A DNA stretch of 64,000 nt from a virus. Shown in pieces: positions 22,182 to 56,958 of the stretch (its first letter is position 1; each line of letters begins with the position of its first letter). The DNA lies in the IMG/VR virus record IMGVR_UViG_3300030060_007200. One strand, 5' to 3'. The translations under genes were made by a program, and so were the position numbers. The notes under the pieces were generated by a model, which saw only the letters and a program-made list of their open reading frames with translations, was not told the origin of the DNA and did no database searches.

Positions 22182-22685
22182 TTAGCTGAATAATTTTGTA
22201 ACTAGTGATTCTGTAAATTTACCGTTTATTATTTTTGTGTAGTTTTTAATTTTTCTTGTAACTTCCTTCTTGTCTTTTTTCCAACGAAGGCCTTTTAGTT
22301 CTTTTTTAAGGTTTGCTATTTGCAAAGCCGCTTTATCTTTATATTCTTGTTTTTCTTTCTTAGAAAGTCTTTTCTTCTTTTCAATTTTTGTTGGTTGTAG
22401 AGTACCTTTCAGCTTAGGTTGTTCTACTCCTTTATGGTATACATTACCATTCCTATCAACAAATTCTTTCATAAAGTGCCAGCCTGATGGTTTACCTGTA
22501 TTACCTCTAACATTTATTACAGGCGGCTCGGTCATTTCCATTACGCATTCGTGACATACAGTAGATGTTGTATCTTCTGAAACAGGTGAAAACTGTCCAC
22601 ATATTTTACATTCCATGTATTTATACAATCTATCTGGATTCTGATTCCATTTATGTCCTTTTCTATATTCTATTGCGTATTCCAT
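22182..22685 (-). CDS. Zinc-ribbon, Lys-rich hypothetical protein
   Basis: CKIC..CHEC and a basic C-terminus. Confidence 0.65.
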   Translation of the reverse strand: MEYAIEYRKGHKWNQNPDRLYKYMECKICGQFSPVSEDTTSTVCHECVMEMTEPPVINVRGNTGKPSGWHFMKEFVDRNGNVYHKGVEQPKLKGTLQPTKIEKKKRLSKKEKQEYKDKAALQIANLKKELKGLRWKKDKKEVTRKIKNYTKIINGKFTESLVTKLFS

Positions 22686-38939: not shown

Positions 38940-41900
38940 TTATTGAGGTCTATTTGAAAAACTTGTAAACTGTTGTTCGTTTTTATAAGCACCGCCTGAA
39001 CCTGTATAATGTCCCATTACAGCAGAAGCTCTACCTTGAGGACTTCTACTTTCTAATTTATATTGGTCGAATGTCCAGCAATTTAGTCCAATAAATCCTA
39101 CGTACAATCCGTTTTCTAACATCAACATTCCATCTGTCAATACACTACCTGAATGGTTAGGTCCCCAATAATTTTTAGGATAGTCTGTTCGAACTTGATA
39201 TGCGAAAGGTGTAAACTGTCCTTCTTGTTCTCCACATAAACCATTTTGTAATAAAAATTGAGCATTTGCCTGATTTGGTCCATATTCTGCCAAATGGTCA
39301 GGTGCGTGTGAAGGACTTACAACTCTTCTCTTTATACTTTTAAGTCGAACATATCCACTAGTTTTGGTAGTTCCTGGTATTATATCAGCACATTTAATAA
39401 ATCCAATTGAGTTGTTATTGGTATATGTTGAAACACTTGCACTAACATATCCAAGATGTCCTAATACTGGTGCAGAACCTGTAAAGTGATATAATTCATG
39501 AACAGATACAGCTCTTAAATCTTTTGGCCAATCTGCAGAGTCTGGAATAAGTGGATGTATTGGTGTTCCTTCACTTGGAAATAAAGGATTGTATATATAT
39601 AAATTTAGACCTCCAAGAGCTGAGAATTTATATCCATCTGTAAATTCTAAATCAAATACCTCATCATTTCTTACAGTTTTTAATGCTCTCCATGCAAATA
39701 TTTCATTACACGTACATGTTGGCCGCTTTGAATAGTATTGCTGGTTATCTGCAAACGTTACCCATCTTCCATAATGCTGTAAAGTTACCTCAACACCTCC
39801 ACCACCTGAACCAAGAGTTGTTCCAAAATTACTCCAGAAATGTCCAGCAACTGAATTGTCATCATTGAAGTCATGTATAACACCCATATCAAGGATGTTT
39901 GCACCCATTGGAGTACCTCCATTTATCATATTTTGTCTATTGTGGCCTCCATACATACTATTATTATGAGTCTGAGTTTGATAGCAACTTTCTCCACTTG
40001 CCAATGCTCTTGCACGAACAACAGAAGCAGTATACATAAATCGATATATATTTTGCTCTGAAGCTGAATCTAATAATTGATATTTTTGTAACATCTGTGA
40101 ATCAAAAAACCCTGAATTCAATGGGTCGTTTTTCTCTACAGGTAATATTCTTTTAATTGAAGGGAAATATCCTAATGAATAAGGTACAGTATTATTTCCT
40201 GTATATGTTCCAAATGGGTCTGACGATATAAATGATGCTGTTGCAGCCGAACCTACAAGATATACAAATAAACTTGAAGGATTACCTATTACTGCATCGT
40301 TTGCGCCATCTCCATTTGTATCGATTGTATTTGTATCAGGGTCTGTTTTTGTAAAATACCAAGCAACACCTGGAAATGTTGGAGGGCCGCCAAATGGAAA
40401 CTTCCCTGCATTAAACGTTCCATTGTATTTATAATATGAAGGTCCTGTTTGTGCTCCCCATTCAGATATTGAATATGTCTGATTACTAAAGATTGTAACT
40501 GAAAAAGGTTTTGGTGTTCTTCTTGTGTGCTTAGGCATATTTATTTCCCAGCGCAATCCTATATGTTCCGGACCAGTTGTATGCCTGCTACTTCCTGTTG
40601 TAAAATGATTCATCTCAACAAACATGGATTCATCATGAAGAGGCCTTCCGTTATCAGAACTAGAAGTATAAAATGCACCAAAGTTAGGTGAATTTGGGTC
40701 TTGATTTCTAGCCCAAGCTGGTTTCATTATTGCATACGCTATTTCACCACCCTGTCTAGGAAAAGACCATAATTCAGAATGTAATTGTGATTTCATATCG
40801 TGCGTACCTTGAAATAAATAAGATGCAGTTACGCCTGTATCTGCTATTTGCTTCCATAAATCCCAAGAAAACCTTATAGCTCTTGGATTATTAACATAGA
40901 ATCCATTTACTGATTGTGAAAATCCACTGTTTATTAAATAAGCTGTTGTTGTTCCATCTGGATTGTCAAAGTCTGCACTAAATGTTGTATATCCTCTTGC
41001 ACCTGGTATAACTACACTTCCTGTTCTAAACATTCCTTTTAATGGTTGAGTAGAATGAGAATAAGGACGATAATGGTTAGGACTATAATCATATCCAGCA
41101 AATTCATCAGGATATTGAGTTCCTTGAGGATGGGTAATATCTACAGGAGGCTGTCCATCACCTGGTCTAGGTCCTTCATACCAAGCAAGTACTGTATTCT
41201 GTTGATTATGTATTCTTGAGCCAGAACAAAAAGAGCTAGTATATATTAACACATCATTAGCTCCAACTGACCAAGAATAAGGAGCTCTCATATATGCAGC
41301 TTTGCCTAATAGTCCATGATATCCATAATAATTACCTCCACCTGAAGCAGACATATGAGGTGTTGGGTCCCAATGTTGAGCTGCTACTGCTTGATTAGCT
41401 CGTGAATGGTCCATAGTTCCCCAAAACTGGCCATAAAAATTAAGAGCTAGTGCTAATGATTCTGCCTTTGACCTTGTCCCTTCAGGCATCCAATCACCAT
41501 TAACTTTAGTTGTGACCGTTGATGCTGTACTAAAATACATAGGTAAAAAGAATTCACCGCCAACATAATTTCCACTAACATTTCTTTTTACAATACTACC
41601 AAACGACTCCCAATCATCTATATACCATAGGTCCTTAAATAATTGTTTTCTATTCAAGTCCATAGTACTACCGACATCCATACCATATACAATATCACCT
41701 GAAGAATGTGTATACAGACCTGCGTGATATTGAACTCCATTTGAAACACCAGATGCAGATGACATAGAAATATAAAATGCTATATTGTTACCACCAACAC
41801 TTTGAAAAAGAGTTTCTAATTGAGTGCTCGCCTCATAAAAATAATTATCAACCTGTCTACCAGCAGGTAAATACGTAGGCCAGTTTTTCCACCAAGCACT

Positions 41901-42878: not shown

Positions 42879-43579
42879 TAGTATGAACCTCCTGTTGGTG
42901 TGTGAAATATATATACACCATTTTCTAACATCATTGATGCTCTAATAACACTGTTTGAAAAAATATCTTGAGGATAAGTTGTTTCAGGAAAACCTGCCAT
43001 CATTCCAGTACCTGAATTTATTGTAAAGTCTGCAACGCTTTCTACCTTAATACAGCCTGATGAAACATCTTGTGTTTTGCCATAAGATTGACATGCAACA
43101 ACATATTCTCCTGCAGTAGGATTATCGAATTGAAGTCCAGTATTTTTTACTACTAACATTTTATTTCCTAGACCTAATGTTATTGCATAGCCATCTGCAA
43201 ATGTATATGTATCAACAAGAGTTGTGTTTGTTGAGCCTTGATAATTTGTTACAACAAATTTATCTAAACTAGTACATTCACAATTAGGTCTCTTAACCTG
43301 CACTCCTGTATTAACAGTTGCTGTAGCATTCGCAGAAGGATTTGCAACACCTGCTTGTGCTTGTAGTTGAGCAAATGTTGTTAATACACCTTCATGAGTA
43401 GCTCTAAAAGGTTTAATCGTAGGAAAATAAGAATATATCTGTCCATTTGCAGTACCTGGTCCATAGGTAAAAGCAGCACTTGCAGCTCGTGTCACAAGAA
43501 GTTGTGAATTGTTAACAGGTGATTGACATCCTCCTCCTACTGGTGGTGGTCCTAATTGTGTCGAAGCTCTTAACGCCAT
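42878..43579 (-). CDS. Hypothetical protein, possible degenerate Hint fold
   Basis: GGGC..SQLLV, YTFADGY, IKVESV and MMLENGVYIFH. Confidence 0.5.
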   Translation of the reverse strand: MALRASTQLGPPPVGGGCQSPVNNSQLLVTRAASAAFTYGPGTANGQIYSYFPTIKPFRATHEGVLTTFAQLQAQAGVANPSANATATVNTGVQVKRPNCECTSLDKFVVTNYQGSTNTTLVDTYTFADGYAITLGLGNKMLVVKNTGLQFDNPTAGEYVVACQSYGKTQDVSSGCIKVESVADFTINSGTGMMAGFPETTYPQDIFSNSVIRASMMLENGVYIFHTPTGGSY

Positions 43580-43951: not shown

Positions 43952-44809
43952 CTATTCTCCTTTTGAATTTTTTACATATTCTACTTTTATCTTTATTTTT
44001 GGCTCGTAACTATCAGGTGTTCTATCATCGATACCAAAATATTCTGATTTATCTTTATCCATTCTTAATGTAAATTCTAAATCTGTCACATTCATCATTA
44101 GCTGGCCTGTGGTAGAAAGAATATCTTTTTCTGTAGGTCCTTTGACCATATCTACATTTCTATATGGATTGTTTCTCATATTCTTTGCATGATATGCAGA
44201 CAAGCCATTTAATACATCGCTAGGTGTTTTTACCTTTGAAAGCATATCTTGTGCGTATTTCCATCTTAATTCTGATGATTTTTTATTAAGTCCTGAGGTA
44301 TATCCAGAATCATCATAATCATATCCGTGATTTGTTCTCACATGATTATGACCTCTATTTAATTTTTTAATAACTGGCTCGTGTTCAGATGTCATTTCTA
44401 TTGAATATGTATGTTTTGGTGTCGCTACAAATGTATGTCCTTTAACACCAACATCTCTTTTGTCGTCACCTTTGAAATTAACTATTGATAATATTGATTC
44501 AGACGCTTTTCTAAACATAAGAGCTCGTCTTATTTTTTTACCGTCTTCTGATGGCTTGCCTTTTTTCTTTGCTAACTTCTTTTCTTTTTCATCTGCATTT
44601 ACCATAAGAGCAGAATTGATAACAGCAGTACCATAATTATTCATACCTTCTGACCAATCAGTATCTTCGTCAACAATATAAACCATTTCTACATCATTGA
44701 TTAGCTCTCTTACAACTTTAACTCTTGCTGTATAAGAACGGTCTCTATTTTTTGCTAAAATAATTTTATTATTAACAACAGTATGTGCTATTGTACATTC
44801 GTTTATCAT
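43952..44809 (-). CDS. Ntn hydrolase (Cys nucleophile; C45/C59/TANGO2-like) with MINE leader
   Basis: MINE|CTIA..LAKNRDR..EGMNNYG..VRTNH; AAGGAG RBS before the ATG at 44809. Confidence 0.82.
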   Translation of the reverse strand: MINECTIAHTVVNNKIILAKNRDRSYTARVKVVRELINDVEMVYIVDEDTDWSEGMNNYGTAVINSALMVNADEKEKKLAKKKGKPSEDGKKIRRALMFRKASESILSIVNFKGDDKRDVGVKGHTFVATPKHTYSIEMTSEHEPVIKKLNRGHNHVRTNHGYDYDDSGYTSGLNKKSSELRWKYAQDMLSKVKTPSDVLNGLSAYHAKNMRNNPYRNVDMVKGPTEKDILSTTGQLMMNVTDLEFTLRMDKDKSEYFGIDDRTPDSYEPKIKIKVEYVKNSKGE

Positions 44810-44840
44810 TTGCTCTCCTTTATATATAAATATCAAACTA

Positions 44841-45368
44841 CTATTTAACCAGTGAAGTTACAATAGTTGTTTCAGGGTATTTCTTTTTAAGAGCGTCGAC
44901 TGCCTTTATATTTTTAGGTGAATCGTCCATAAAATATATTGGGTCATAACCTTTTTGAATTTCTTTTTCTATATAATCTGCTTTTTTCTGTGGGTCTCCA
45001 CTACCTAATGTAATTACATAAGGCTGAATTCCTATTGATTTGAAGAAAGAGTTAATTGGTGCGCCAAGTCTTCTCGCTGTAAGTATCGTTACTTTTCTAC
45101 CACCTTTCTTTAATTGTTTTTTCAATAAATCTGCATTCTTTTTTATTAACCTGGGATTTCTTATTGGCCTATCAAAATCTCTAAAATCATATGACTGTCC
45201 TTTTTTAAGACCTTTATGCACAGCAAACTGTGCCGCATCCAATGTATCTACAACACTTCCTTCATCGTCAACAACATATACCCATGAATCTGATTTTACT
45301 AATGTATCATCAAAATCAAAAATGCTTAACATTCTTTTTTCTAATAACAGGTCTTTTAATTTAATCAT
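44841..45368 (-). CDS. HAD-superfamily phosphatase (Swiss-Army-knife RNA-repair type) with MIKLKDLLLE leader
   Basis: IFDFDDTL, ILTAR, K and FMDDSPKN. Confidence 0.8.
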   Translation of the reverse strand: MIKLKDLLLEKRMLSIFDFDDTLVKSDSWVYVVDDEGSVVDTLDAAQFAVHKGLKKGQSYDFRDFDRPIRNPRLIKKNADLLKKQLKKGGRKVTILTARRLGAPINSFFKSIGIQPYVITLGSGDPQKKADYIEKEIQKGYDPIYFMDDSPKNIKAVDALKKKYPETTIVTSLVK

Positions 45369-45847
45369 AGATACTTTTTCCAATTCTTTTCAGCATTTCT
45401 AGCTTGTTTTTCCATAGGATTATTTGTATATCCTTTTTCTCTACCTTGCTTTATTTTCTTTGGGTCTTGTGTTGCGTGTGTATATTCATGAAGCATAGCA
45501 CGTATTACATCTTCCTCAGAATTAAGAGCAGCCTTATATAAATATATAGTATTGTCTTCATGTACAAATTCAGCATGCTCGTTTTCACCGCCTGGATAAT
45601 CATCAATTCCACTGTATCTTGCATAAACATTGCTGTGTATTTCGATTTTAGGTGTACCTTTTCTTGCTCTACCTAAATTTTTAACAACCTGAGGATATAT
45701 TCTATTAACGATTTTTAATATATCGTTTTTTGACATTCCTTCTGATAGTATTTCTTTTAATTTTATCATTTTATACGGACAGTTTTTACAACCACAGTTA
45801 CAACAGAATCCTCGATTTAATAAAAATTCTCTTGATAGAGGCTTCAT
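45365..45847 (-). CDS. Zincin-like HExxH protein; N-terminal DUF5522-like Cys cluster and internal MIKLKEILSE leader
   Basis: RGFCCNCGCKNCPY, LHEYTHATQ and NPMEKQA. Confidence 0.72.
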   Translation of the reverse strand: MKPLSREFLLNRGFCCNCGCKNCPYKMIKLKEILSEGMSKNDILKIVNRIYPQVVKNLGRARKGTPKIEIHSNVYARYSGIDDYPGGENEHAEFVHEDNTIYLYKAALNSEEDVIRAMLHEYTHATQDPKKIKQGREKGYTNNPMEKQARNAEKNWKKYL

Positions 45848-46036
45848 TTATTCCCATTTTCTTTCGTATTTTTCTCGTTGGTCAACAAGAACATATTCGA
45901 CAATATCATTTTTGCCACAGTGAGGACAGTTTAATCTTTCTAAATTAGTTGCCTCGTTTATCTTCCACTCACCTTTACACGTTTTGTCACTGCACTTATA
46001 GATATATGTGTGTCGTATAAATACTTTGTGTCCCAT
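45848..46036 (-). CDS. Small zinc-ribbon protein
   Basis: YKCSDKTCKGEW..LNCPHCG; start moved to 46036 to avoid overlap. Confidence 0.65.
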   Translation of the reverse strand: MGHKVFIRHTYIYKCSDKTCKGEWKINEATNLERLNCPHCGKNDIVEYVLVDQREKYERKWE

Positions 46037-46040
46037 TTTA

Positions 46041-46604
46041 CTACCATTTTCTACATGACCAGTAACGAGCTTTCGTTTTAGGTCCAGGATTATCACAGTT
46101 GTGTCTTGCTCTAAATGATTTACGTCTTTCAGGATTGTTCTTTTTGATTCTGTTCTCTGCACCTTTTGCACCAAAACTAACTTTCTTTACCTTGTCTCCA
46201 TCTTTAACGTATACCTTAAATTTACTATTACCATCACCTTGCATAGGTTTGTTGAGTTTAACTTTACGACCTTGATATTCAGCTTCTGAGATGCGTTTAA
46301 CAGCTTCAACTAACCATTCTGTAAAGCAACCGATGTCTTCCTTTTTAACAAAAAGTTCATTTTCTGTAATATTATTTATTACCTCATCTAGCTTTCCTTC
46401 GAAAAAATACATATCTCTTTGCATCCAACCATCAAGGTTTTCCCATTTACCATCAACCAAATCGTAATCAATATCATCTGGGTCTTTTACTACAGAAAGC
46501 ATTGCCTGCTCTCTTTCGTCTTCGCTGGCTTTTTTCCACCATTTTTTGGTAACTTTTACACCTTTACCAACTCTTCGTTCATTAAGAATTTGTTTTAGCT
46601 TCAT
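46041..46604 (-). CDS. Putative head-internal protein with MKLKQILNE leader
   Basis: C-terminal basic domain KKVSFG..RRKSFRARHNC..KARYWSCRKW; several x-x-E sites. Confidence 0.7.
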   Translation of the reverse strand: MKLKQILNERRVGKGVKVTKKWWKKASEDEREQAMLSVVKDPDDIDYDLVDGKWENLDGWMQRDMYFFEGKLDEVINNITENELFVKKEDIGCFTEWLVEAVKRISEAEYQGRKVKLNKPMQGDGNSKFKVYVKDGDKVKKVSFGAKGAENRIKKNNPERRKSFRARHNCDNPGPKTKARYWSCRKW

Positions 46605-47577
46605 AATATCTCCATAATTCTTTTCCTAGTTTTTTACCAAATAAAGAATCTGATAAAAAATGTTGTTTTGCAATATTTCTACTATATGATATTTCCTCTG
46701 CAATTTTCAAAAAACGCATTTTATGCTCAGGATAAATATCACCTAACACATAAGCTAATAAATAACCTTGCGCTGAATGACCACTTGGATATGATGGTGT
46801 CATTGCACTATCGAGAGGTTGGTCATGAAATTTAAGACCATACGATTTAGCAACTTGTACAGGTCTAGGTCTATTGTAATGATATTTCAATGATTTAATT
46901 ATCCATCTTGTTTGTTTCATAACATTTTTCATTAAGTCATAAGAAACATTTATATTTAAGTCTTGAGTTCTTTCAATGAAATATTTTTTTATTTTGTCTG
47001 CCTTTAATACAAATTCAGGATTAGGTTTTAATTTATCGATTTGCATTAACTCTTTTCTTGTTTCTATTGAATCGTTAGGTGGAAATGGAAGATTGTGAAA
47101 GTTACTGATAGGAAATTCTTTCCATGCACCTTTTTTATCTGACATGTGACTGATGGCCTTTTCATCAGGTTCGCCAAATTTTATGTCATTTCTTCCTTCA
47201 GTTACCTTATCAGGAAGCTCCTCATAATCTTTCTTAGTCATTTTACTATCCATTTTCTTTGCAGCTTTTGGGTCTGTCGCAAACATAAATCTTTGTTGTG
47301 CCTTGCTAGCAAATTTTTCAAAAAGAAATGAATGTACACCACCTCCTGTACCAATACTAGACCATTTGTCATGTTTTATTTTTATTGAAGGATATAATTT
47401 TTTTATTGATTTAATTACATCCTTTGGATTTACCTTATATCCATAAAACACACTCATACCATTTTTATTCAGTTTCGTAACTTTAGGTCTTGTTCTTCCT
47501 GAATAATCAATAGATAATTGATATGAAATATCTTTTTTATTTATCTTTTCAAATAATATGTTTTGTAATTTAATCAT
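46582..47577 (-). CDS. PAP2/vanadium-haloperoxidase-family phosphatase with MIKLQNILFE leader
   Basis: KYHYNRPRP, PSYPSGHS and SR..A..HF.SD. Confidence 0.85.
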   Translation of the reverse strand: MIKLQNILFEKINKKDISYQLSIDYSGRTRPKVTKLNKNGMSVFYGYKVNPKDVIKSIKKLYPSIKIKHDKWSSIGTGGGVHSFLFEKFASKAQQRFMFATDPKAAKKMDSKMTKKDYEELPDKVTEGRNDIKFGEPDEKAISHMSDKKGAWKEFPISNFHNLPFPPNDSIETRKELMQIDKLKPNPEFVLKADKIKKYFIERTQDLNINVSYDLMKNVMKQTRWIIKSLKYHYNRPRPVQVAKSYGLKFHDQPLDSAMTPSYPSGHSAQGYLLAYVLGDIYPEHKMRFLKIAEEISYSRNIAKQHFLSDSLFGKKLGKELWRYYEAKTNS

Positions 47578-47915
47578 CGGTTTAAGTATTGTCGCCATTT
47601 ACTATAATCAGGTGCCATATTAGTTCCACCAACATTAACATTAGCTTTTAATTTATCTTGAGCATCTAAGTAAGTTGTACGTCCACTTGTGATTTGAAAA
47701 GCAAATTTCTTTTTAAGGTTAACAGCAAATAGACCACCAGGCAGACCAATTAAGAATGTACCTTTAGGAACTTTGGCATAACTTTTACCAGCCATTTGTG
47801 TTCCTACACCAGGAATACCACCAGCTGGACGAGTATTATATTTTACCATTGCATCTTTTAATATGATAGCTTGGAAGTTAATTCCTTCTCTTAATATGTC
47901 TTTTAATCTTGCCAT
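47574..47915 (-). CDS. Hypothetical protein with MARLKDILRE leader
   Basis: Leader motif; intact ORF. Confidence 0.65.
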   Translation of the reverse strand: MARLKDILREGINFQAIILKDAMVKYNTRPAGGIPGVGTQMAGKSYAKVPKGTFLIGLPGGLFAVNLKKKFAFQITSGRTTYLDAQDKLKANVNVGGTNMAPDYSKWRQYLNR

Positions 47916-47916
47916 T

Positions 47917-48426
47917 TTATTTTCCTCTTACTTTTTTAGCCAAGTCTTTATCTGCCTTACCCCAAGTACCAGGACTCTTTGTTGTAAATGAATTTACTCG
48001 AGCATATCCCCATTGTTGTTGAGTTGCACCAGGTCTATGTCCAGTTTTCCATGCAGCCATACCTCTGTTAAATACCTGCTTTAATATACCAAAAGGCATA
48101 CCTGATTTTTCAGCCTTCTTTTTAAGACCTTTTTTAACAGCAGCGCTCATTTCGTTAATACCTTTTGACATTTTATATACTTCTTTTATGGTTTTCCAAC
48201 CGGATTCACCATACATCTGCTTGAATTTTTTTGTATGTGTCGACACTTTTGTTTTCTCCCCTTTATCACTTCTAAAATCTTTATATGCATCAGGGTCATC
48301 GTCATCCATTTTACTTCTTTTTGCGATAACTCTTTCGCGTTCTTCTTTATCGTCTTTTGATAAACCTTTGAAATATGTAGGGTCTTTTTCTGGTGTTGCA
48401 GCTTCAGCTAATTTTTTTAATTTCAT
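47917..48426 (-). CDS. Basic protein with MKLKKLAE leader (DUF5824-like)
   Basis: LKKKAEKSG..RGMAAWKTGHRPGATQQQWGYARVNSF..ADKDL. Confidence 0.7.
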   Translation of the reverse strand: MKLKKLAEAATPEKDPTYFKGLSKDDKEERERVIAKRSKMDDDDPDAYKDFRSDKGEKTKVSTHTKKFKQMYGESGWKTIKEVYKMSKGINEMSAAVKKGLKKKAEKSGMPFGILKQVFNRGMAAWKTGHRPGATQQQWGYARVNSFTTKSPGTWGKADKDLAKKVRGK

Positions 48427-48893
48427 GAGTGTGCCTCGTGTATGTATCTTGTCTTACCATTAACTCGCTTTGCAATTGTTAATTTCTTTCTGTTTTCTCT
48501 ATGTGTCACATAGCTAACATGAATCCAGTTAGGATTTTTATCATCACCGAACTCCCAAATTAACTGGTCAAAATCTAAATTATCTTTTATGTAATGATAC
48601 ATCTCTGCATTTGTTTTATATCCAAAAGTATCATCTAAATCTAAAGCCTGTCCTTTCATATGTTGAGAATATTTTGAACCACCAATTGCAGTGTTAACTG
48701 GTTCGCCTCTGAAAAAGCTATTTATTTTTATAGGTCCGCCAACCCATTCTCTTAATGGCTCAAACAAACCTTCTGCTATTTCTTTCATGCATTTTATTTG
48801 GTCTTCATTTGGTGTGTTATCAAGACCTCTTCTTAATGCAGTGTTACTATGTGTACCTTCTTTCCAACTTACGTGTTTACTAAATCTTTCCAT
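48423..48893 (-). CDS. Peptidase M15 (peptidoglycan endopeptidase, probable endolysin)
   Basis: INSFFR, SQHMKGQALD and WIHVS. Confidence 0.88.
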   Translation of the reverse strand: MERFSKHVSWKEGTHSNTALRRGLDNTPNEDQIKCMKEIAEGLFEPLREWVGGPIKINSFFRGEPVNTAIGGSKYSQHMKGQALDLDDTFGYKTNAEMYHYIKDNLDFDQLIWEFGDDKNPNWIHVSYVTHRENRKKLTIAKRVNGKTRYIHEAHS

Positions 48894-49126
48894 TATTTCC
48901 CCTTAATTTTTTCAAATGCACTAATACCAAAACAGCCTAGTGTTACCATAACAAAAGAATTATATATCGTATCATTGATTTCTAGTTGACCACCTCCTAC
49001 ATATCCCATAAACCATATACCAGTAACCAAATCAGCCACTGCAAATAACACCATTACTGCAAAAGATACAAATCCAACTATATTCTTTTCATTGATATTA
49101 TTTTTATCTCTAAATATTTTCCACAT
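48893..49126 (-). CDS. Two-TM membrane protein (holin candidate)
   Basis: Two TM segments; directly upstream of the M15 peptidase. Confidence 0.55.
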   Translation of the reverse strand: MWKIFRDKNNINEKNIVGFVSFAVMVLFAVADLVTGIWFMGYVGGGQLEINDTIYNSFVMVTLGCFGISAFEKIKGK

Positions 49127-49485
49127 TAGAATCCCTCCATTATGATTTCATCTATTTTAGCCTGTACTTCTTTTTGTGTTGCTTCCATTGTCATCATAAT
49201 GTTGGCTTGAAACCTTGCAACTTCTTCTCCATCATTATATATTACAATTGTTGGTACTACTACAATTTTATACTTTGCTGCAGCCTTTTGGTCTGCTGCG
49301 ATATCTATAAATTTTGTATCACATTCTTTTAATTTACCTACCCAAGGTACTTTATTTTGAGCATTGAAACTTGCATTGAACTGTACGACACATAACCCAT
49401 CAGTCTTGCAGGGTGTCTGGCCTACAGCAGATGTAACAAATAACCAAAATAATATTACTAATAAATATGCTAGTTTTCTTTTCAT
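49126..49485 (-). CDS. Exported thioredoxin-fold protein lacking CxxC
   Basis: Signal SAVG|Q; VVQFNASFN in place of WCxxC; YKIVVVPTIVIYNDGEEVARF. Confidence 0.78.
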   Translation of the reverse strand: MKRKLAYLLVILFWLFVTSAVGQTPCKTDGLCVVQFNASFNAQNKVPWVGKLKECDTKFIDIAADQKAAAKYKIVVVPTIVIYNDGEEVARFQANIMMTMEATQKEVQAKIDEIIMEGF

Positions 49486-49784
49486 TTATCAAGCTCCTCA
49501 ATTTTTTCTAAAATATCATTGATATGTATTTTTATTGTATCGACCTCATACTGAGTCTGTTGAATGATTTGAAACATACTGTCTTGATATTGTATATCTT
49601 CTTGTGTAGGTATCCAGATTTCAGATTCTGGTTCTTTCTCGATTACTTTTATTTCTTCTTTTGGTGATGCAGAAATAACTCCTGCTACAACTATTCCACT
49701 AATAAAAACGGCTATCATTACCATTATAGAGCTTTTTGATGTTAAGCATATTTTTTTACAAAATATTTCGTTAAGTCTTTTCAT
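49482..49784 (-). CDS. Membrane-anchored coiled-coil protein
   Basis: TM segment followed by an acidic coiled coil. Confidence 0.6.
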   Translation of the reverse strand: MKRLNEIFCKKICLTSKSSIMVMIAVFISGIVVAGVISASPKEEIKVIEKEPESEIWIPTQEDIQYQDSMFQIIQQTQYEVDTIKIHINDILEKIEELDK

Positions 49785-50068
49785 TATCTTAATTTATCTA
49801 TCTTTTCTTCTAAACGCTTTATAGATTCTTTTAATTCTTTAACATCTTCTTGTGTAGTCATAATTGTCTGTCTAACTAATTGGTCTTTCATGTCAAATTC
49901 CATTCTAGTTATTTCTGCAGGTGGAGGTACAGGTAATTCTTTTGCCTCTTGTATATCTGCTTGAAGAGCGAACCACATACCTACAATAGTAAATATTAGT
50001 ACTGCTATACCTGCTAGCGTTTTTATACTGATATTAAAACTAGTTTCTTCGTTAAGTTGCTTCGCCAT
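49784..50068 (-). CDS. Single-TM coiled-coil protein
   Basis: TM segment, PVPPP linker and coiled coil. Confidence 0.65.
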   Translation of the reverse strand: MAKQLNEETSFNISIKTLAGIAVLIFTIVGMWFALQADIQEAKELPVPPPAEITRMEFDMKDQLVRQTIMTTQEDVKELKESIKRLEEKIDKLR

Positions 50069-50078
50069 TCTTATTCCC

Positions 50079-51134
50079 CTAAAATACTCTATAATTTATC
50101 CCAGCACTAAATCCGTGCCATGTTCTGTTCCAATATTTATTATATGTTCCTTCTACAAAAAGTCCTAAATTTTTACTTAACCAGTGTCCGAAAATAACAC
50201 CTCCTGAATAATCTATCCATTGGCCTCCATTAAAATTGTAATAACTAAATTCATTTTCATCATCACTGTAATGTAATGGCATTACGTTGCCCCAAGCATG
50301 TAGCCAACTAGATTTTGTATATTTGTAATAATCAAATCCTGCTACCCATGAATGTGTCCACTGAATAGGTAACTCATCTCTTTTCTTTTCTGTATAATTA
50401 GCCAGTGCTTGTGGTATTACAACTGCTTCCCATACTTCTGAACTTGTAGCTACTGAAATACCTGCAGGGTCAAAATATTCTGCACCACCTTGTCCATCAA
50501 ATTCTACTGTATACCCTTCTTGTAAAGCTAATTGAGTATAGTGTAGATTGCCTGTTGATAATTTCCATTCTTCTAATGGGTCATATCCATAAGGCTCTGA
50601 CATTCTTTGAGCTATACCAATATTAAGTGATATGCCTTTCCATTGTTTTCTTAGTCTTTGAGAAGATTCAAAATATTGTACATCAGCAAATCCATCTTTA
50701 AGATATTCAACCTTAGCAAGCCATTTATCATCAATATATCTTATCATATGATTAAGGTCAAAATATTCCTGACCTTGTTGTCTTTTATATTCATGTTGAA
50801 ATAAAAATTCAACCTCGTTTTTCCATAAACCTTCAGTAGCGCCATCACTAAACGAAGCCTCCAAACCTCTTTTGAAAGCCTCTTTTGGTTCATATCCAAA
50901 TCTTTTTATCTTTCTAACACCAAGTATAAGTGAGTAGTCATAAGGAGTTTTAATTGTAGATGTCTCCAAACCATTTGTAACGCTGTATACATCTACATCT
51001 GAAATAGAATTACCACCGTTTACGGCACCATAAAGAGTAGAATATTTGAAAAAGTCTTTAACTTGGCCGCAACATTCTTTTGGTGCAGCGCAAGATGCTA
51101 AAACAACTAATAATAAAAGCAATATTTTTTTCAT
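50079..51134 (-). CDS. Putative outer-membrane beta-barrel protein
   Basis: MKKILLLLLVVLASC signal/lipobox, aromatic-rich strands and C-terminal AGINYRVF. Confidence 0.7.
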   Translation of the reverse strand: MKKILLLLLVVLASCAAPKECCGQVKDFFKYSTLYGAVNGGNSISDVDVYSVTNGLETSTIKTPYDYSLILGVRKIKRFGYEPKEAFKRGLEASFSDGATEGLWKNEVEFLFQHEYKRQQGQEYFDLNHMIRYIDDKWLAKVEYLKDGFADVQYFESSQRLRKQWKGISLNIGIAQRMSEPYGYDPLEEWKLSTGNLHYTQLALQEGYTVEFDGQGGAEYFDPAGISVATSSEVWEAVVIPQALANYTEKKRDELPIQWTHSWVAGFDYYKYTKSSWLHAWGNVMPLHYSDDENEFSYYNFNGGQWIDYSGGVIFGHWLSKNLGLFVEGTYNKYWNRTWHGFSAGINYRVF

Positions 51135-51145
51135 AATTATTATCC

Positions 51146-51382
51146 CTATTTTGTCATTCTTTGTGTCCAATCTTTTAGCTTATCCTGCAGTTGTTTTTTA
51201 ATTCCAGGTCCTCTAAAAGTTCCGCCTATCTTCATTGCGTCTTTGATAAAGCTATTATATTCTTTGTTCCATTTTACTACCAAAGTTTTTTCAAAATCAT
51301 TTAATAATTTTGCTCGCTCTTTGTCTTCGCCTTTTGAGATTGTTCCGTCAGGATTAGCCTCAATAATTTTTTTTAATTTCAT
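51146..51382 (-). CDS. Small protein with MKLKKIIE leader
   Basis: Leader motif. Confidence 0.6.
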   Translation of the reverse strand: MKLKKIIEANPDGTISKGEDKERAKLLNDFEKTLVVKWNKEYNSFIKDAMKIGGTFRGPGIKKQLQDKLKDWTQRMTK

Positions 51383-54300
51383 TGTTTTATCACCCTTGTT
51401 GTAAATCTTTTGTTATTATATATAAGTATCAAGTTATATACACCATTACTGTAATTTGATAAATCTATTCTTTTAGATTTTTCTCTTGTCATTAACTTAC
51501 CTTGTAAATTGTATATTTCAACCTCCACATCCAATCTTGTATCTATATTTAATACATCGCCTGTTGGATTTGGATAAACCATAATTCCCATAGATGTTAT
51601 ATCTTCAACATTTGTTGGCCAACCTAATTGGCAATAATCATACATTGATATACATGATGCATCCCAATCTGTAGTACAGCAATAGTCGTCTACTGATATC
51701 ACCCAAGCATAACATCCATCATTTAACCAATAAGGTATACCAGGCCCTCCATAACATCCTGCATCGTATAAACATGCTGTAGAATCAGTTACATTTGCCA
51801 GTGGATTGTAATTATATGCCGCTACATCTGTACAACCTGAAACAATTTCGATACATGAATTATCATCAAAGCATGCTGCCGGGTCATAATTCAATGCTGT
51901 AGGGTCAGTACAACCTGAAATATAACAACATGTATTATCAGATGTGTTTGCCAATGGATTGTAGTTTAATGCTACTGGGTCGTTACATCCGTATACAAAA
52001 GGTTCACATGAACCGTTATCAACATTAGCCAATGGATTATAGTTCCACATTGTCGAATCTGTACAACCATAAATTGGTAAAATACAGCTAAAATCATCTG
52101 TGTTTGCAAGTGGGTCGTAATTTAATGCTGATGGGTCTGTACAACCGTAAACAATAGATTGACAAGTGCCATTATCTGTATTAGCTAATGGGTCATAATT
52201 AAATGCCGTTGAATCCATACATCCATATATAAACGGTATACAATTTCCTGATGATGTATTTGCTGTTGGGTCGTAGTTCCACATTGTATTATCCATACAT
52301 CCAATTATTACAGGAATACAACTACCATCATTTGTATTTGCTGTTACATCATAATTAAACATTGTTGGGTCTGTACAACCGTAAATATAAGGTATGCAAG
52401 AACCATCATCTGTGTTAGCTGTTAAACTATAATTATACATTGTTGAATCAGTACAGCCGTATACAATACCTACACATGTTCCGTCATCATCTGTAGCAGC
52501 AGGATTAAAGTTTATTGAAAGTGGATTTGTACAACCTGCAATTTCCAATTCATCGCAAACTCCATCACCATCTGTATCTAATATACAAGCTCCATAACAA
52601 TCATAATATTGAACTGGATATGTACAACCTCCATTATCTACATTTGCAATTGCGTCGTAATTACAAGCTGTTACATCTGTACAGCCTAAATAAATACAAG
52701 AACCATCATCTACATTTGCTAATGGATTGTAATTATATCCTATAGAATCCATACAGCCATTCACAATTGGAATACATGAATTATCATCTACTGTTGCTAA
52801 TGAATCATAATTAAGAGCAAATTCATTTGTACAGCCATATATAATAGGAATACAATTGCCATCATCAGTATTTGCCAGTGGGTCGTAATTTGCTGCTGTT
52901 GAATCCATACAGCCTAATATTACTGGTACACAAGTATTACCACAAAATGGAATACCTACATATTTTGTCCAGAAAGGAGATTCAAAAGATTGTAAAGCTC
53001 CTTGACCGTTATTAGCAAAAGGATTTTGTCCTTCATGCATTAAAACAAAGCCATCTGCATTTGTTAATTTGAATGAGTTATGCCAAGTTTGAAATTGAAC
53101 CTCTTGCGGTGGTTGTTGTGGTCCACCTACTTCAAAATAAAATACTTCAACTGGAATTCCTGGGTCTAAAATAATATTCCATGAACCACCATAATTACCA
53201 GGTCCCATTGTATATGTACCAATTATCAATCCGTTTTGATAAACTCCTATATAAGAATTACCCCAACCATCTCCTGCAGCATCGAATATTTCTAATAAAT
53301 AATTACAGTCAGGTATTAAATCCATCATTGTTGCTGCTGGGTCATAATTAAATGCAGCTGGGTCTGTACAGCCGTATGTATGTAATGTTGCACATGAACT
53401 GTCATCTACTGTCGCAGCAGGATTAAATTCTACGTAATCATCATCTGTACATCCTGGTATTGGAGGTATTATAGGACAAGGTGTTGCCATTTGCTGGCCT
53501 GAATACAATACGGAACCAAAACCTGGATTGTCCATATACCAAATTGTATCACCATCACAGTCGTATATAACAATAGCTCCATCCATCGAACCACCTGAAG
53601 TAGAGCCTGCCATACCGTCACCAAAATCATCGTTAACAATAAGTTCGAATCCTGCAGTTTGGTCTACACAGAAAGTATAAGTGTATGTTTGTCCGATATC
53701 GTTAAAATCATATGTTCCTACTGTAGCTTCATCAATAACTCCTAAACTATTCATTATCCACGATGTTTCTCCTGGCCAATTATCTAGTGTAATTTCCATT
53801 GTTATTTGATATTGAGTTGCAGTATCACAAGATGTACCTGCACAACTTCCATCATCATATGTAGCCCATGGGTTATATGATATTTGAGTAGGGTCTGTAC
53901 AACCTGATATACAAGAAGTAGGTGTGTAAGCTATTGTATCTGATAAACTACCATCTAAAAATTCTACCCAACCATAATGTTCTACTGACCAGTTAGGTGG
54001 CATCTGACCGTTACCTGCGTAAACTGCAAAGTCTAATGAGTTAGGACCAAGTCCATACTGAAAAGGACCTGCGCCATTTTCATTGGAATACCAGAATTTT
54101 ACAGGTGTACAATTTGTATTGCTATCAAGAGTCCAGTTAAAAAGTACAAGTGTTTGTCCACCTGGTAAGCAATTTTGTGATGCTGTAGAAGTTAAAAAAC
54201 CCTGACATGGGTCAAATTGACAAATGCTAGGGTCAGAAATATATGCTGTTGAGTCATAATTTAATGCTGAAGGGTCTGTACAACCTACTGTTGGTGGAGC

Positions 54301-54678
54301 ACAAGGAGCAGTTGTTAATGTTTCTACCAAACTATCTCCAAAATTACCTGCAGCATACATTAAAGTATCTTGGCATGAATTGCTAATTAAAAACCATCCA
54401 TCAGTCCCACCCCATTGAGATGCAGCTAATCCATCACCATAACTATCGTATATACTTGCAATAAAAGTACCTTGTATAGGAATGATAGTATCATATAATG
54501 TATTAGGTAACATACCACTATCATTTTGCAAAATAATTGGTGAGCCTCCTGGAGGTGTGATATCCCAACTTGTTTCAGAAGGATAATTGTCTGTTAATAA
54601 TTGTACGTGAATCCAACTGTCAATTTGTGAAAATACAACCGTTGGTATAACCATTAGTAAAAATACTAGTTTTTTCAT
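51379..54678 (-). CDS. T9SS type A sorting-domain protein with about 18 GC(T/M)D Cys repeats
   Basis: Signal VFS|Q; repeats GCTDxxAxNYDPxAxxDDGSC; C-terminal VYPNP..YNLQGK..IDLSNYSNGVY..RVIKQ. Confidence 0.9.
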   Translation of the reverse strand: MKKLVFLLMVIPTVVFSQIDSWIHVQLLTDNYPSETSWDITPPGGSPIILQNDSGMLPNTLYDTIIPIQGTFIASIYDSYGDGLAASQWGGTDGWFLISNSCQDTLMYAAGNFGDSLVETLTTAPCAPPTVGCTDPSALNYDSTAYISDPSICQFDPCQGFLTSTASQNCLPGGQTLVLFNWTLDSNTNCTPVKFWYSNENGAGPFQYGLGPNSLDFAVYAGNGQMPPNWSVEHYGWVEFLDGSLSDTIAYTPTSCISGCTDPTQISYNPWATYDDGSCAGTSCDTATQYQITMEITLDNWPGETSWIMNSLGVIDEATVGTYDFNDIGQTYTYTFCVDQTAGFELIVNDDFGDGMAGSTSGGSMDGAIVIYDCDGDTIWYMDNPGFGSVLYSGQQMATPCPIIPPIPGCTDDDYVEFNPAATVDDSSCATLHTYGCTDPAAFNYDPAATMMDLIPDCNYLLEIFDAAGDGWGNSYIGVYQNGLIIGTYTMGPGNYGGSWNIILDPGIPVEVFYFEVGGPQQPPQEVQFQTWHNSFKLTNADGFVLMHEGQNPFANNGQGALQSFESPFWTKYVGIPFCGNTCVPVILGCMDSTAANYDPLANTDDGNCIPIIYGCTNEFALNYDSLATVDDNSCIPIVNGCMDSIGYNYNPLANVDDGSCIYLGCTDVTACNYDAIANVDNGGCTYPVQYYDCYGACILDTDGDGVCDELEIAGCTNPLSINFNPAATDDDGTCVGIVYGCTDSTMYNYSLTANTDDGSCIPYIYGCTDPTMFNYDVTANTNDGSCIPVIIGCMDNTMWNYDPTANTSSGNCIPFIYGCMDSTAFNYDPLANTDNGTCQSIVYGCTDPSALNYDPLANTDDFSCILPIYGCTDSTMWNYNPLANVDNGSCEPFVYGCNDPVALNYNPLANTSDNTCCYISGCTDPTALNYDPAACFDDNSCIEIVSGCTDVAAYNYNPLANVTDSTACLYDAGCYGGPGIPYWLNDGCYAWVISVDDYCCTTDWDASCISMYDYCQLGWPTNVEDITSMGIMVYPNPTGDVLNIDTRLDVEVEIYNLQGKLMTREKSKRIDLSNYSNGVYNLILIYNNKRFTTRVIKQ

Positions 54679-54821
54679 ATTTCAAACCCCAAATTACATA
54701 TCATAAATCGAAATTTACCTTTTTCGACCTTTATTTCTAATACTGTAAAAGTACCAAGTCTAAATGTTAGACTGTACTTCTCTTTTTTATTTCCTGCGTC
54801 AAAGCCGTTAATCCAATTCAT
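54675..54821 (-). CDS. Small hypothetical protein (48 aa)
   Basis: Hand-translated MNWINGFDAGNKKEKY..RFMICNLGFEI; coupled to the T9SS gene start. Confidence 0.55.
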   Translation of the reverse strand: MNWINGFDAGNKKEKYSLTFRLGTFTVLEIKVEKGKFRFMICNLGFEI

Positions 54822-54823
54822 AA

Positions 54824-54967
54824 TTACTTCTTTTTTGTTTTTTTAACTTTTTTTGCTTTCTTTGTTTTTTTCACTGTGCAGTTTTCTTCTACACATTCTT
54901 CGCACCATCCGATACATACTTTACCAAATGTGATTGCGCATAATAATTTACAAATAAATGATTTCAT
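54824..54967 (-). CDS. Small Cys/Lys-rich protein
   Basis: MKSFICKLLCAITFGKVCIGWCEEC. Confidence 0.5.
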   Translation of the reverse strand: MKSFICKLLCAITFGKVCIGWCEECVEENCTVKKTKKAKKVKKTKKK

Positions 54968-54968
54968 T

Positions 54969-55358
54969 TTAATCTCCAAATACTTTTTTCTTGCCACCGT
55001 GGTATTCATAAGCATGACCTTCGGCTTTAAGTGTTTCGTTTATATTATATTGTTTACCGTCCTTATCCTGTATAAATATCTCACCTAAAACTCGGCCATA
55101 TTTTCCAACACCATGACTTTTTAATCTAAAGTAGCCAGCCTTGTCGCTGACCTCCATTAGTAATTCTTTATTACGAGCCTTAGCCTCCAAACCTTTTGCT
55201 TTTTCTGCCAAGTCTCTTGTTCTACTTTCCCAAGTATCTATGCCTGTATATCGAATTCTTTTCTTAACCCAAATATCAAAGCCAACATCTATAAGAGCAT
55301 CGATAGTATCTCCATCGACAACTCGTTCTAGCTTTCCTCTATAAATATATTTGTCCAT
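54969..55358 (-). CDS. Thermonuclease (SNase-like)
   Basis: RVVDGDTID, RIRYTGIDTWES and GKYGRVLG. Confidence 0.9.
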   Translation of the reverse strand: MDKYIYRGKLERVVDGDTIDALIDVGFDIWVKKRIRYTGIDTWESRTRDLAEKAKGLEAKARNKELLMEVSDKAGYFRLKSHGVGKYGRVLGEIFIQDKDGKQYNINETLKAEGHAYEYHGGKKKVFGD

Positions 55359-55585
55359 TACTTTATATTTTTCTTTAAGTAAGCAACGCAAAAATTTAAT
55401 AATTCTTTTCTTGCTGGAGCTATATCACCTTTTTCAGTCATAGGACCAGTTTTCCATTCAACCCATCCTTCTACTATAGTTTCTAAACCTTCTTCCATAC
55501 CAGGCATAAGCTCGATATATTCCTCGTTGATTTTTTCTTCGTTTATCTTTCTCAACCAAGCATGTGTGTTAAATTCTTTTGCCAT
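55358..55585 (-). CDS. Small protein with INE|EKINE|E leader
   Basis: Tandem INE motifs. Confidence 0.6.
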   Translation of the reverse strand: MAKEFNTHAWLRKINEEKINEEYIELMPGMEEGLETIVEGWVEWKTGPMTEKGDIAPARKELLNFCVAYLKKNIK

Positions 55586-56958
55586 TAGTATTGCTCCATT
55601 TTATCTAATTTAGCCATAAGTTTTTTGAACTCAGCTTTTTTCTTTTTATATTCTTTTTCTTTTTTATCTATTTCTTTACCATATCTAGTAGCTTTAGGGC
55701 CACCTTCTGGTTCTGCTTCCTGTTCCATGTCTATATGTAACTGTTTAAGATCGTTAGTTATCGTTTTCATATCATATTCAAGGTCCATGATAGTATCTTG
55801 TAGTTTCATTTTTGCATCGAAGTGTTTCCAAAGATTTGTTGCTTCGTTTACAGATTCTTTTGCCATCATGACAGCAAGTCCTAAGTCATCAATAATCTTT
55901 TTAGCATCATTAAAGTATTTTTTATCCAACTTCAGTGCTGTCAAAGTTGTAGATAATCTATTCATTGAATATCCTTTTATTTTAGCTTTATCCAATGCTT
56001 TTTGTAAGTCTGCAGGTTTGAAGTTTCCAGCAGTCTTTATACCAATCATACTTTCATTTAATTCGTTAACACCTTCGCCAAAATTCATAGCTCTTAATTG
56101 AAATTCAATAATTCCTTCAGCGCGCTTTCTGTTTTGTTTACCAACAAGCTTTGCGAATGCCAATTTGTCAAAAATTACCTTTGCTGCTTTTACAGGATTT
56201 AATCCTTCATTTAATTTGCCTTCTATAATAAAATCATCAAATCCTCCAATATGACTTGCAAGAGCCTGGCTGTGCATTAGTCTTCCTGTTTTTGGATTCT
56301 TCCAAGAATTTCCTGATATTTTTAAGAACGGTCCATAACCACCGCCTTTTGCTTTTGCACCTTTTTTAGCTTTTACCAAATCTTTTTCTACAGATTCGTT
56401 TACAGATTCATTCCTCATGTTGTATTCTACATCTTCAATCCAGTCAGCAACGTCAAACTTTTCATAATCTTTTACAAACTGTCCTGGTTTTTTTCTAGCA
56501 ATTTGCTCGATAGATTTTAGATAGTCTTTAACATATCTTTGGTCTAGTCTTCTGCCTTTTGTAGTTTGAAGTAGAGCCTCTTTGGCAAATTTGAAAACAT
56601 CTTTTGCCATGCTTTCATTTAATTCGCCTCTAACTATATTTTCTAAATGAAGTTCAGCATCTTTATCCAACTGTACAATCATTGAATTTAATAATTTTTG
56701 AGCTTGCTTTTTCTTTGCTGTTAATGCTGCAGCAACCTTTTTATATTTTTCCTTGTCAGAATCTGTAGTTGCGTCTTTGTAAGATTTTAGATTTTTTAAT
56801 AATTCAGCTGTAACTTTTGCCAACGCATCATATGCTTTTGAAACCTTTAACGGTGTCACTTTTGCTTCATCTAGGTCGTGTAAAATCTTTCGTTTTTCTT
56901 TTTCTGTAAGTTCAGAAAGCTCTTCACTCACTATTTTTTGAATATCAAGTTTACCCAT
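55585..56958 (-). CDS. Putative head-internal polyprotein with many [LIV]-x-E sites
   Basis: ELNE|S, RNE|SVNE|S, KLNE|G, GVNE|LNE|S and SVNE|A separate unrelated helical modules. Confidence 0.65.
   Translation of the reverse strand: MGKLDIQKIVSEELSELTEKEKRKILHDLDEAKVTPLKVSKAYDALAKVTAELLKNLKSYKDATTDSDKEKYKKVAAALTAKKKQAQKLLNSMIVQLDKDAELHLENIVRGELNESMAKDVFKFAKEALLQTTKGRRLDQRYVKDYLKSIEQIARKKPGQFVKDYEKFDVADWIEDVEYNMRNESVNESVEKDLVKAKKGAKAKGGGYGPFLKISGNSWKNPKTGRLMHSQALASHIGGFDDFIIEGKLNEGLNPVKAAKVIFDKLAFAKLVGKQNRKRAEGIIEFQLRAMNFGEGVNELNESMIGIKTAGNFKPADLQKALDKAKIKGYSMNRLSTTLTALKLDKKYFNDAKKIIDDLGLAVMMAKESVNEATNLWKHFDAKMKLQDTIMDLEYDMKTITNDLKQLHIDMEQEAEPEGGPKATRYGKEIDKKEKEYKKKKAEFKKLMAKLDKMEQY

Follow-up and report, generated by a model that had tools for sequence, protein, structure and literature searches.

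We analysed a 64-kb stretch of viral DNA (IMG/VR record IMGVR_UViG_3300030060_007200; hereafter, the window) in which a series of otherwise dissimilar genes opens with the same short N-terminal peptide. Every gene of this stretch is encoded on the minus strand, and the genes include a T4-type baseplate wedge gene, a primase, SbcCD, a ligase and sugar-nucleotide genes. The wedge protein is 42–46% identical to its homologues in Microcystis phage Mel-JY01, in LR756508 (an uncultured, 484-kb phage) and in Flavobacterium phage immuto, and megablast of the region against isolated phages returned no match. The phage is an uncultured marine T4-like virus, a deep-branching myovirus of the T4 superfamily. 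An initial annotation had drawn a block at positions 43952–56958, proposing that its genes share a portable leader, or tag, similar to the capsid-targeting sequence (CTS) of phage T4 internal proteins and cut after [IL]-x-E.

We searched the entire window in all six frames with the expression M-x(0,1)-[KR]-L-[KQ]-x-[ILVM]-[ILVMA]-x(0,1)-E. This motif scan, which the initial annotation had suggested, gave exactly seven matches, all on the minus strand and each heading an open reading frame (ORF), and no further match in any other frame or part of the 64 kb. The seven leaders were thereby located, by coordinates and by scan, at the genes to which they had been assigned. The block itself proved too wide: all seven tagged genes fall inside it, but they span 44841–51382 only, and it also holds an untagged M15 peptidase, membrane and lipoprotein genes, a 1099-residue protein sorted by type IX secretion and a staphylococcal-nuclease homologue. 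In the window, the tag has the form M-(I)-K-L-K-x-[IL]-[LIA]-(x)-E and measures 8–10 residues; the four 10-residue versions have L at position 4, I or L at 7, L at 8 and E at 10, and the 8–9-residue versions retain [IL]-x-E. A strict 10-codon DNA pattern of the tag matched the window four times, against 0.00 expected from 100 shuffles. Chance origin was rejected on these grounds, namely matches at ORF heads only, the excess over shuffled sequence and a reversed-pattern control that gave 0 in every genome searched. A secretion signal was likewise rejected, as the tag has no hydrophobic core.

The tagged genes, all on the minus strand, differ in their Pfam content. The first (44841..45368) encodes a 175-residue HAD-type phosphatase with the leader MIKLKDLLLE (45368–45339), followed 8 residues past the tag Glu by the start of the DxDxT motif. 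Its assignment is based on a match to phrog_415 (polynucleotide kinase, E 3.5e-8) and on its motifs; Pfam gives no support for it, and tblastn against isolated phages found no match. Homologues at other metagenomic loci carry the leader (L001, L165, G014 and L086), and an untagged one (L148) begins MGRILRVFDFDDT, that is, at the residue after the tag. Next lies a zincin-like HExxH protein (45365..45847) with the leader MIKLKEILSE (45769–45740), upstream of which the frame is open for 26 codons (45770–45847) that specify a CCxxGCxxCPY motif of DUF5522 (28.1 bits, cut-off 25). This extension, a possible fusion or alternative start, occurs only in the closest relatives (P0121, P0122 and P0207). 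The leader stands first in 97 of 120 homologue clusters, and untagged homologues, forming five clusters, begin at the residue following the tag. The AlphaFold2 (AF2) model of the HExxH protein has a mean predicted local distance difference test (pLDDT) score of 89.7, with 54 for the leader block against 85–97 for the domain, which is folded from about residue 14. H94, E95 and H98 are invariant in 47 sequences, and the best fold matches are all zincins, although weak (Foldseek E of at least 0.2, Z at most 7.8); a Pfam match to DUF3920 fell under its cut-off.

The remaining five tagged genes comprise one further enzyme and four small proteins. A basic 187-residue protein (46041..46604; isoelectric point (pI) 9.5) with the leader MKLKQILNE (46604–46578) carries a C-terminal DUF5754 module (E 1.8e-8, residues 124–168), which is found behind other leaders at many IMG/VR loci. 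It is followed by a soluble PAP2-type phosphatase of 331 residues (46582..47577) with the leader MIKLQNILFE (47577–47548), a PF01569 domain at residues 226–315 (E 1.6e-13; 51 bits, cut-off 27.2) and all three signature motifs (KxxxxxxRP, PSGH and SRxxxxxHxxxD) in its translation. Within this protein an internal F-L-F-E (residues 84–87) precedes a 35-residue module, KFASKAQQ (47313–47209). A basic 113-residue protein (47574..47915; pI 10.2) begins with MARLKDILRE (47915–47886), a basic 169-residue protein (47917..48426) with the short leader MKLKKLAE (48426–48403) contains DUF5824 (E 2.9e-21, residues 102–161), and a basic 78-residue protein (51146..51382) opens with the equally short MKLKKIIE (51382–51359). 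ATGA stop/start overlaps favour the starts at 45368 and 47577. The mature parts of all tagged window proteins are basic (pI 9.2–10.2). Neither Pfam nor PHROGs gave a match for the 113- and 78-residue proteins, nor for three sets of tagged proteins in relatives described below (a 102-residue protein of a sibling contig, the paralogues of Mel-JY01 and the tagged head-module genes of contig G014). The suggestion that the catalytic domain starts right after the tag Glu held for the HAD protein and for the neighbouring hydrolase described below, but not for the PAP2, DUF5754 and DUF5824 domains, which lie far downstream.

Outside the set caught by the scan, a Lys-rich protein of 457 residues (55585..56958, minus strand) is a weak possible member. 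Its N-terminus, MGKLDIQKIVSE, ends in I-V-x-E and was not matched by the leader expression in the six-frame search, and we regard its membership as tentative. At residue 372 it has an internal V-N-E|A junction followed by a conserved C-terminal module, which in another locus (L003) follows the leader MKLKKIAE. The KFASKAQQ module behaves similarly, standing after a tag in L003, L006 and L013 and after FLFE inside the PAP2 protein of the window. Conserved modules, whether N-terminal or internal, thus have [LIV]-x-E just before them.

Comparison with a sibling IMG/VR contig (G001, 85% identical) showed that the tag persists when the protein behind it changes. Six of the seven tags are retained, including that of the 78-residue protein, and the seventh gene begins MIKLSDILNE and encodes other cargo. 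Homology between the two contigs passes through the tag of the gene starting at 47915 and is lost at 47885, to return with the ATG of the following tagged gene (47577), so that the 113-residue cargo is swapped for an unrelated one of 102 residues exactly between two tags. The KFASKAQQ module that follows FLFE in the PAP2 protein of the window is also missing from the sibling. As homology breaks at tag boundaries, the tags bound exchangeable cassettes. More distant contigs carry the tag on yet other cargo.

We scanned IMG/VR with a degenerate DNA pattern and obtained at least 120 loci. Among the matches listed, a tagged ORF is present in 116 of 120 loci, 110 loci have one preceded by no more than 20 open codons, and in 47 loci there are two or more tagged ORFs. 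The tagged ORFs number at least 193, with an upstream open frame of 20 codons or fewer in 176 of 193, and BLAST groups their cargo into at least 113 clusters. N-terminal position, clustering and cargo diversity in this set do not follow from the way it was retrieved. Paralogy of the tagged proteins was rejected given their differing domains and the 113 cargo clusters among these matches. The strict pattern had no match in T4 or immuto, three in Mel-JY01, whose paralogues begin MIKLKSLLQE, six in LR756508 and seven in a complete 369-kb contig; the reversed control was 0 in all. Synonymous codon use in the tag mirrors that of the gene bodies (K as AAA, 0.83 vs 0.75; L as TTA, 0.64 vs 0.51; E as GAA, 0.83 vs 0.80), which indicates that constraint acts on the peptide and not on an RNA or DNA element.

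Two tagged genes of related contigs extend the range of cargo. The complete 195-kb contig G014 encodes a 2H phosphoesterase (40708–41238; L184:708–1238, minus strand) with the leader MKLRKILKE, whose similarity to the anti-CBASS protein Acb1 stays below threshold (25.3 bits, cut-off 27; CBASS, cyclic-oligonucleotide-based antiphage signalling system), and it is possible that this protein is a packaged degrader of cyclic-nucleotide signals. A second sibling contig, G026, carries a Zeta-toxin-like P-loop kinase (31097–31798; L216:14098–14799, plus strand) with the leader MIKLFDILNE, just upstream of a cytidylyltransferase and the head module. The phage of the window probably has such a kinase beyond the left end of the window.

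A tag of this kind would require a head protease, and a search for one succeeded in part: a gp21-type protease (family S77) is present in a sibling contig and in relatives, but its gene lies outside the window. G026 is collinear with window positions 1–20510 in a single alignment (85.5% nucleotide identity) and encodes Peptidase_S77 (E 2.8e-34) some 19 kb past the left end of the window, in a T4-like head module with the order terminase, portal, core proteins, protease, scaffold and capsid protein. The Pfam Peptidase_S77 family, to which T4 gp21 belongs, was found in three of five related contigs, in Mel-JY01, immuto and LR756508, and in 11 of 20 tag-bearing contigs, among them both complete ones. 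When capsid proteins are aligned, FLTE|A, the maturation site of T4 gp23, falls on LLDE|T, LVTE|N and LISE|A of relatives. The sibling capsid protein shows QLISE|S at the equivalent position of its N-terminal region, and this L-I-S-E ends as the tag does. We infer that maturation of the capsid protein takes place at a site of the type in which the tag ends. Tagged genes also reside in the head module: in G014, three of them (MIKLKKLLGE, MIKLKDLVE and MIKLKTILNE) lie between the protease and the scaffold and capsid genes, and two genes among these three have the looser forms MIKLSDLLNE and MIKLTDLVKG. Among the IMG/VR matches listed, the largest tagged family is the gene immediately after the protease.

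Two other genes recur around the protease. One, resembling ribosomal protein S21, lies between the protease and scaffold genes across the lineage (L188:3063–3305, L027:3955–4320, G026 43187–43501 and Mel-JY01 22183–22410). The other, a small conserved gene just upstream of the protease (L020, L170–L179 and L188:8384–8815), is marked by the motif DGY-x-TP-x-AF and has a helical N-terminus with repeated [IL]-[IV]-[KR]-E; this N-terminal part ends in E|A or E|M ahead of the conserved part, and the protein is probably another processed core component.

The strongest evidence for cleavage after Glu, although indirect, comes from the gene adjoining the tagged set. ORF 43952..44809 (minus strand) encodes a predicted Cys N-terminal nucleophile (Ntn) hydrolase of 285 residues with a minimal propeptide, M-I-N-E, and its nucleophile, Cys5, stands directly after I-x-E. 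The ORF has no Pfam match, and a search of the family profile against Protein Data Bank (PDB) sequences found none. Its AF2 model (pLDDT 89.5) has the Ntn alpha-beta-beta-alpha fold with the nucleophile Cys opening the first strand, and Foldseek and VIA matched it to Cys-Ntn hydrolases with Z of 19–20 and a root-mean-square deviation of about 3–4 Å over 205–230 aligned residues. The matches include acyl-CoA:isopenicillin N acyltransferase (AAT), NAAA, acid ceramidase, bile salt hydrolase (BSH) and penicillin V acylase (PVA). Cys5 aligns with residue 103 of AAT, the first residue of the NAAA beta chain, residue 2 of BSH and residue 1 of PVA, and it also falls on the nucleophile of acid ceramidase. 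Fold and nucleophile position are thus those of known Cys-Ntn hydrolases, and the present family differs in the invariant Glu before the Cys.

Homologues of this hydrolase suggest that the junction is kept while the propeptide varies. Glu precedes Cys (position P1) in 117 of 117 homologue clusters, and L or I occupies P3 in 113 of them. The propeptides are 4–144 residues long, and in 36 of 117 an MIKLK-like opening stands before the same E|C junction; three homologues have a 144-residue N-terminal extension before it, and two of the three resemble the HExxH protein at their start. Among 120 sequences of the wider family, drawn from a profile search of 1.8 billion representatives, the junction is [LIVM]-x-E|C in 40, [KR]-x-[AGS]|C in 60, M|C in 16 and of mixed form in 4. 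Both isolates with the E|C form, among them Chryseobacterium phage MA9V-1, encode an S77 protease. The invariant Glu in [LI]-x-E before the Cys suggests activation by the phage head protease and not self-processing. In the second class of the family (P0248–P0386), [KR]-x-[AGS]|C is often found at residue 6 of, or within, giant proteins of up to 2792 residues, a pattern that suggests another processing protease in another group of viruses or elements.

The tag invites comparison with several known systems. In T4, the first 10 residues of internal protein III (IPIII) are enough for packaging, with residues 4 and 7 serving targeting and residues 8 and 10 processing, as judged by mutagenesis (PMC9026906). 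The T4 CTS (MKTYQEFIAE; IPI–III) and the short propeptide of Alt (ITE-6) are removed by gp21 and, as here, are N-terminal on unrelated, mostly basic proteins. The CTS and the present tag have in common a length of 10 residues, hydrophobic residues at 4, 7 and 8, Glu at 10 and the L/I-x-E ending, and the two lineages have in common the S77 protease family and cargo that varies between related phages. The tag differs, however, in its consensus (MIKLKxLLxE), in a lineage far from the T-even phages and in the lack of any strict-pattern match in the T4 genome, and also in its at least 113 enzyme-rich cargo clusters, its 8–9-residue forms and its internal sites. With only format and ending in common, we filed the tag as CTS-like and not as a member of the same sequence family. 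The nearest T4 sequences are the N-termini of gp24 (MAKINELLRE), to which MARLKDILRE of the window is close, and of gp22 (MLKEQLIAE). T4 gp24 is annotated as cleaved by gp21, but gp24 and gp22 are essential shell and scaffold proteins, unlike the swappable cargo seen here.

More remote parallels exist. Encapsulin cargo-loading peptides are short, portable peptides that direct unrelated enzymes into a shell of the HK97 fold; the resemblance is one of analogy, as they are C-terminal and kept on, and they involve no scaffold, protease or delivery to another cell, unlike the present tag. In the giant phages phiKZ, 201phi2-1 and SPN3US, many head-internal proteins are cut after Glu by a gp21-related protease (S80; A/S/G-x-E), and paralogues have identical propeptides (PMC5694885). 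Those systems differ from the present one in having small P3 residues in place of L/I, longer propeptides, another protease family and no single short tag across unrelated families.

We weighed four alternatives to a capsid-targeting function, of which one concerns the Ntn hydrolase only. Ntn hydrolases normally self-process, and self-processing is the rule in the structurally related AAT, NAAA and acid ceramidase, precursor forms of which were among the matches. The E|C junction could likewise be autocatalytic, in which case it would be uninformative about a head protease. We consider this unlikely: other members of the family have M|C or [KR]-x-[AGS]|C at the junction, indicating that Glu at P1 is unnecessary for the enzyme's own chemistry, and the near-perfect co-variation of P3 and P1 (4 exceptions in 120) resembles recognition by lineage-specific outside proteases. 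The MIKLK-like openings of many Ntn propeptides and the S77 genes of both E|C isolates point the same way. A second possibility is that the tag is indeed a propeptide cut by the prohead protease but serves latency or scaffolding, the tagged proteins being core components or zymogens that act in assembly or lysis and are degraded or expelled, like T4 scaffold fragments, instead of injected. The commonest tagged family does occupy T4's scaffold-gene position directly after the protease, the tagged genes of the window adjoin an M15 peptidase and membrane genes resembling a lysis cassette, and for the Ntn hydrolase cleavage would be enough, without injection. Yet cargo that is highly diverse, rich in enzymes (phosphatases, a kinase, a 2H phosphoesterase) and swapped between close relatives is a better fit to accessory effectors than to structural parts, and the small basic cargo resembles T4 internal proteins (PMC3012670); we judge this explanation distinctly unlikely.

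Explanations that dispense with the capsid fared worse. Being short and amphipathic, the tag might be an address or control signal of another kind, such as a phage-chaperone site, a degron or a membrane-association helix. Its hydrophobic stretch is too short for secretion or membrane insertion, however, and a signal unrelated to the capsid would hardly end in the exact maturation motif of the capsid protein, co-occur with S77, head genes within the head module and be missing from homologues that begin just past it; we hold this to be very unlikely. It is extremely unlikely that the conserved element is a nucleic acid, be it an enhancer of translation initiation, an operator bound by a translational repressor or a recombination site at which cassettes are shuffled. 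The A/T-rich codons of the tag and the homology breaks between window and sibling exactly at tag boundaries, as expected of crossover sites, speak for such an element. But synonymous positions are as variable as in gene bodies, the seven window tags use differing Leu, Ile and Lys codons, and no sequence upstream of them is held in common. A recombination role is compatible with a peptide function, but it leaves unexplained both the invariant Glu and the recurrence of [LI]-x-E ahead of internal modules and of the Ntn Cys.

We therefore favour the interpretation of the leader as a T4-type capsid-targeting propeptide, to which we assign a probability of roughly 70%. The portable, T4-like tag of the initial annotation is supported by every sequence test made here (portability, peptide-level selection, S77 in the lineage, the capsid site, location in the head module, untagged homologues and the E|C junction), and we infer from these that the tagged proteins bind the core, are cleaved by the protease, stay in the virion and are injected. 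Removal of the tag is indicated indirectly, by the untagged HAD and HExxH homologues that start just after it and by the Ntn nucleophile right after Glu. According to the model we propose, tagged proteins would bind the prohead scaffolding core late in infection via positions 4, 7 and 8, the hydrophobic face of the tag, and the gp21-type serine protease (S77) would then cleave after the terminal Glu of [IL]-x-E. The mature proteins, freed within the head, would leave it together with the DNA when another cell is infected. The cargo set would comprise two phosphatases (HAD and PAP2), the zincin-like HExxH protein, four small basic proteins and, by way of M-I-N-E, the Cys-Ntn hydrolase, a presumed zymogen that would be switched on in the prohead, and only once cleavage has uncovered its N-terminal Cys. 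The DNA coding for the tag also delimits the cargo cassettes that related phages swap. Anti-defence or RNA-repair roles of the cargo are speculation.

Several points weigh against this interpretation. Since the IMG/VR loci were retrieved by means of the tag pattern itself, conservation at the positions it fixes is by construction. In the present phage the tag of the HExxH protein may be internal, given the open frame upstream. The protease gene of the window's phage is presumed from its 85%-identical sibling contig, and S77 was not seen in nine of the 20 tag-bearing contigs, all nine of them fragments. Phage immuto has the protease and, by the strict pattern, no tag, which implies that heads can be assembled without one. 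The T4 late-promoter word TATAAATA occurs 30 times in the window against 16.6 expected, and none of these stands upstream of the tagged genes. Literature searches found no virion proteome, N-terminal sequence or transcript timing for this phage or its tag-bearing relatives, with a gel from sodium dodecyl sulfate polyacrylamide gel electrophoresis (SDS-PAGE) as the sole record for MA9V-1; no paper on Mel-JY01 was found, nor did a full-text search for tag strings find any.

The untagged genes of the region bear on the host and on lysis. The 1099-residue protein (51379–54678, minus strand) has a signal-like N-terminal segment, many Cys-rich repeats of about 35 residues (GCTD...YNP...DDGSC) and a C-terminal type IX secretion system (T9SS) sorting domain (PF18962, E 4.9e-11). 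A T9SS sorting domain on a phage protein indicates a Bacteroidota host, by whose T9SS the protein is apparently exported. Amid the tagged genes, a lysis-like cassette (48423–51170, minus strand) holds the M15 peptidase (phrog_894, endolysin) and three small membrane proteins, together with a protein that has a signal peptide and weakly matches thioredoxin and one of 363 residues with a lipoprotein signal. The staphylococcal-nuclease homologue (54969–55391, minus strand; PF00565, E 1.6e-7) has no tag; staphylococcal nuclease itself was reportedly packaged artificially by T4 workers by means of the CTS.

What appears to be new here is a probable use of the T4 CTS principle under another consensus and in a lineage remote from T4, where the cargo is far more extensive, rich in enzymes and probably inclusive of a protease-activated zymogen. 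In its widest form, our proposal is that a single 10-residue label, in an abundant and mostly uncultured branch of T4-like phages, loads well over 100 protein families for co-injection, putatively including phosphatases, kinases, 2H/Acb1-like phosphoesterases and peptidase-like enzymes, that the head protease doubles as zymogen activator and polyprotein cutter, and that the label serves as a crossover point for cargo; we put this forward tentatively, at slightly less than even odds. If true, the injected 'first-minute' proteome of such phages would be legible straight from metagenomic sequence, and the earliest step of infection (anti-defence, nucleotide and RNA-end chemistry, envelope attack) would be open to study by the same means. 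Should the tag work as in T4, a regular expression would suffice to list the packed, and probably injected, proteins of uncultured phages. The T4 internal-protein paradigm would then grow from three small proteins to a cassette-exchanged enzyme kit, with a natural case of a head protease activating a packaged zymogen and a second compact tag for putting foreign proteins into phage heads.

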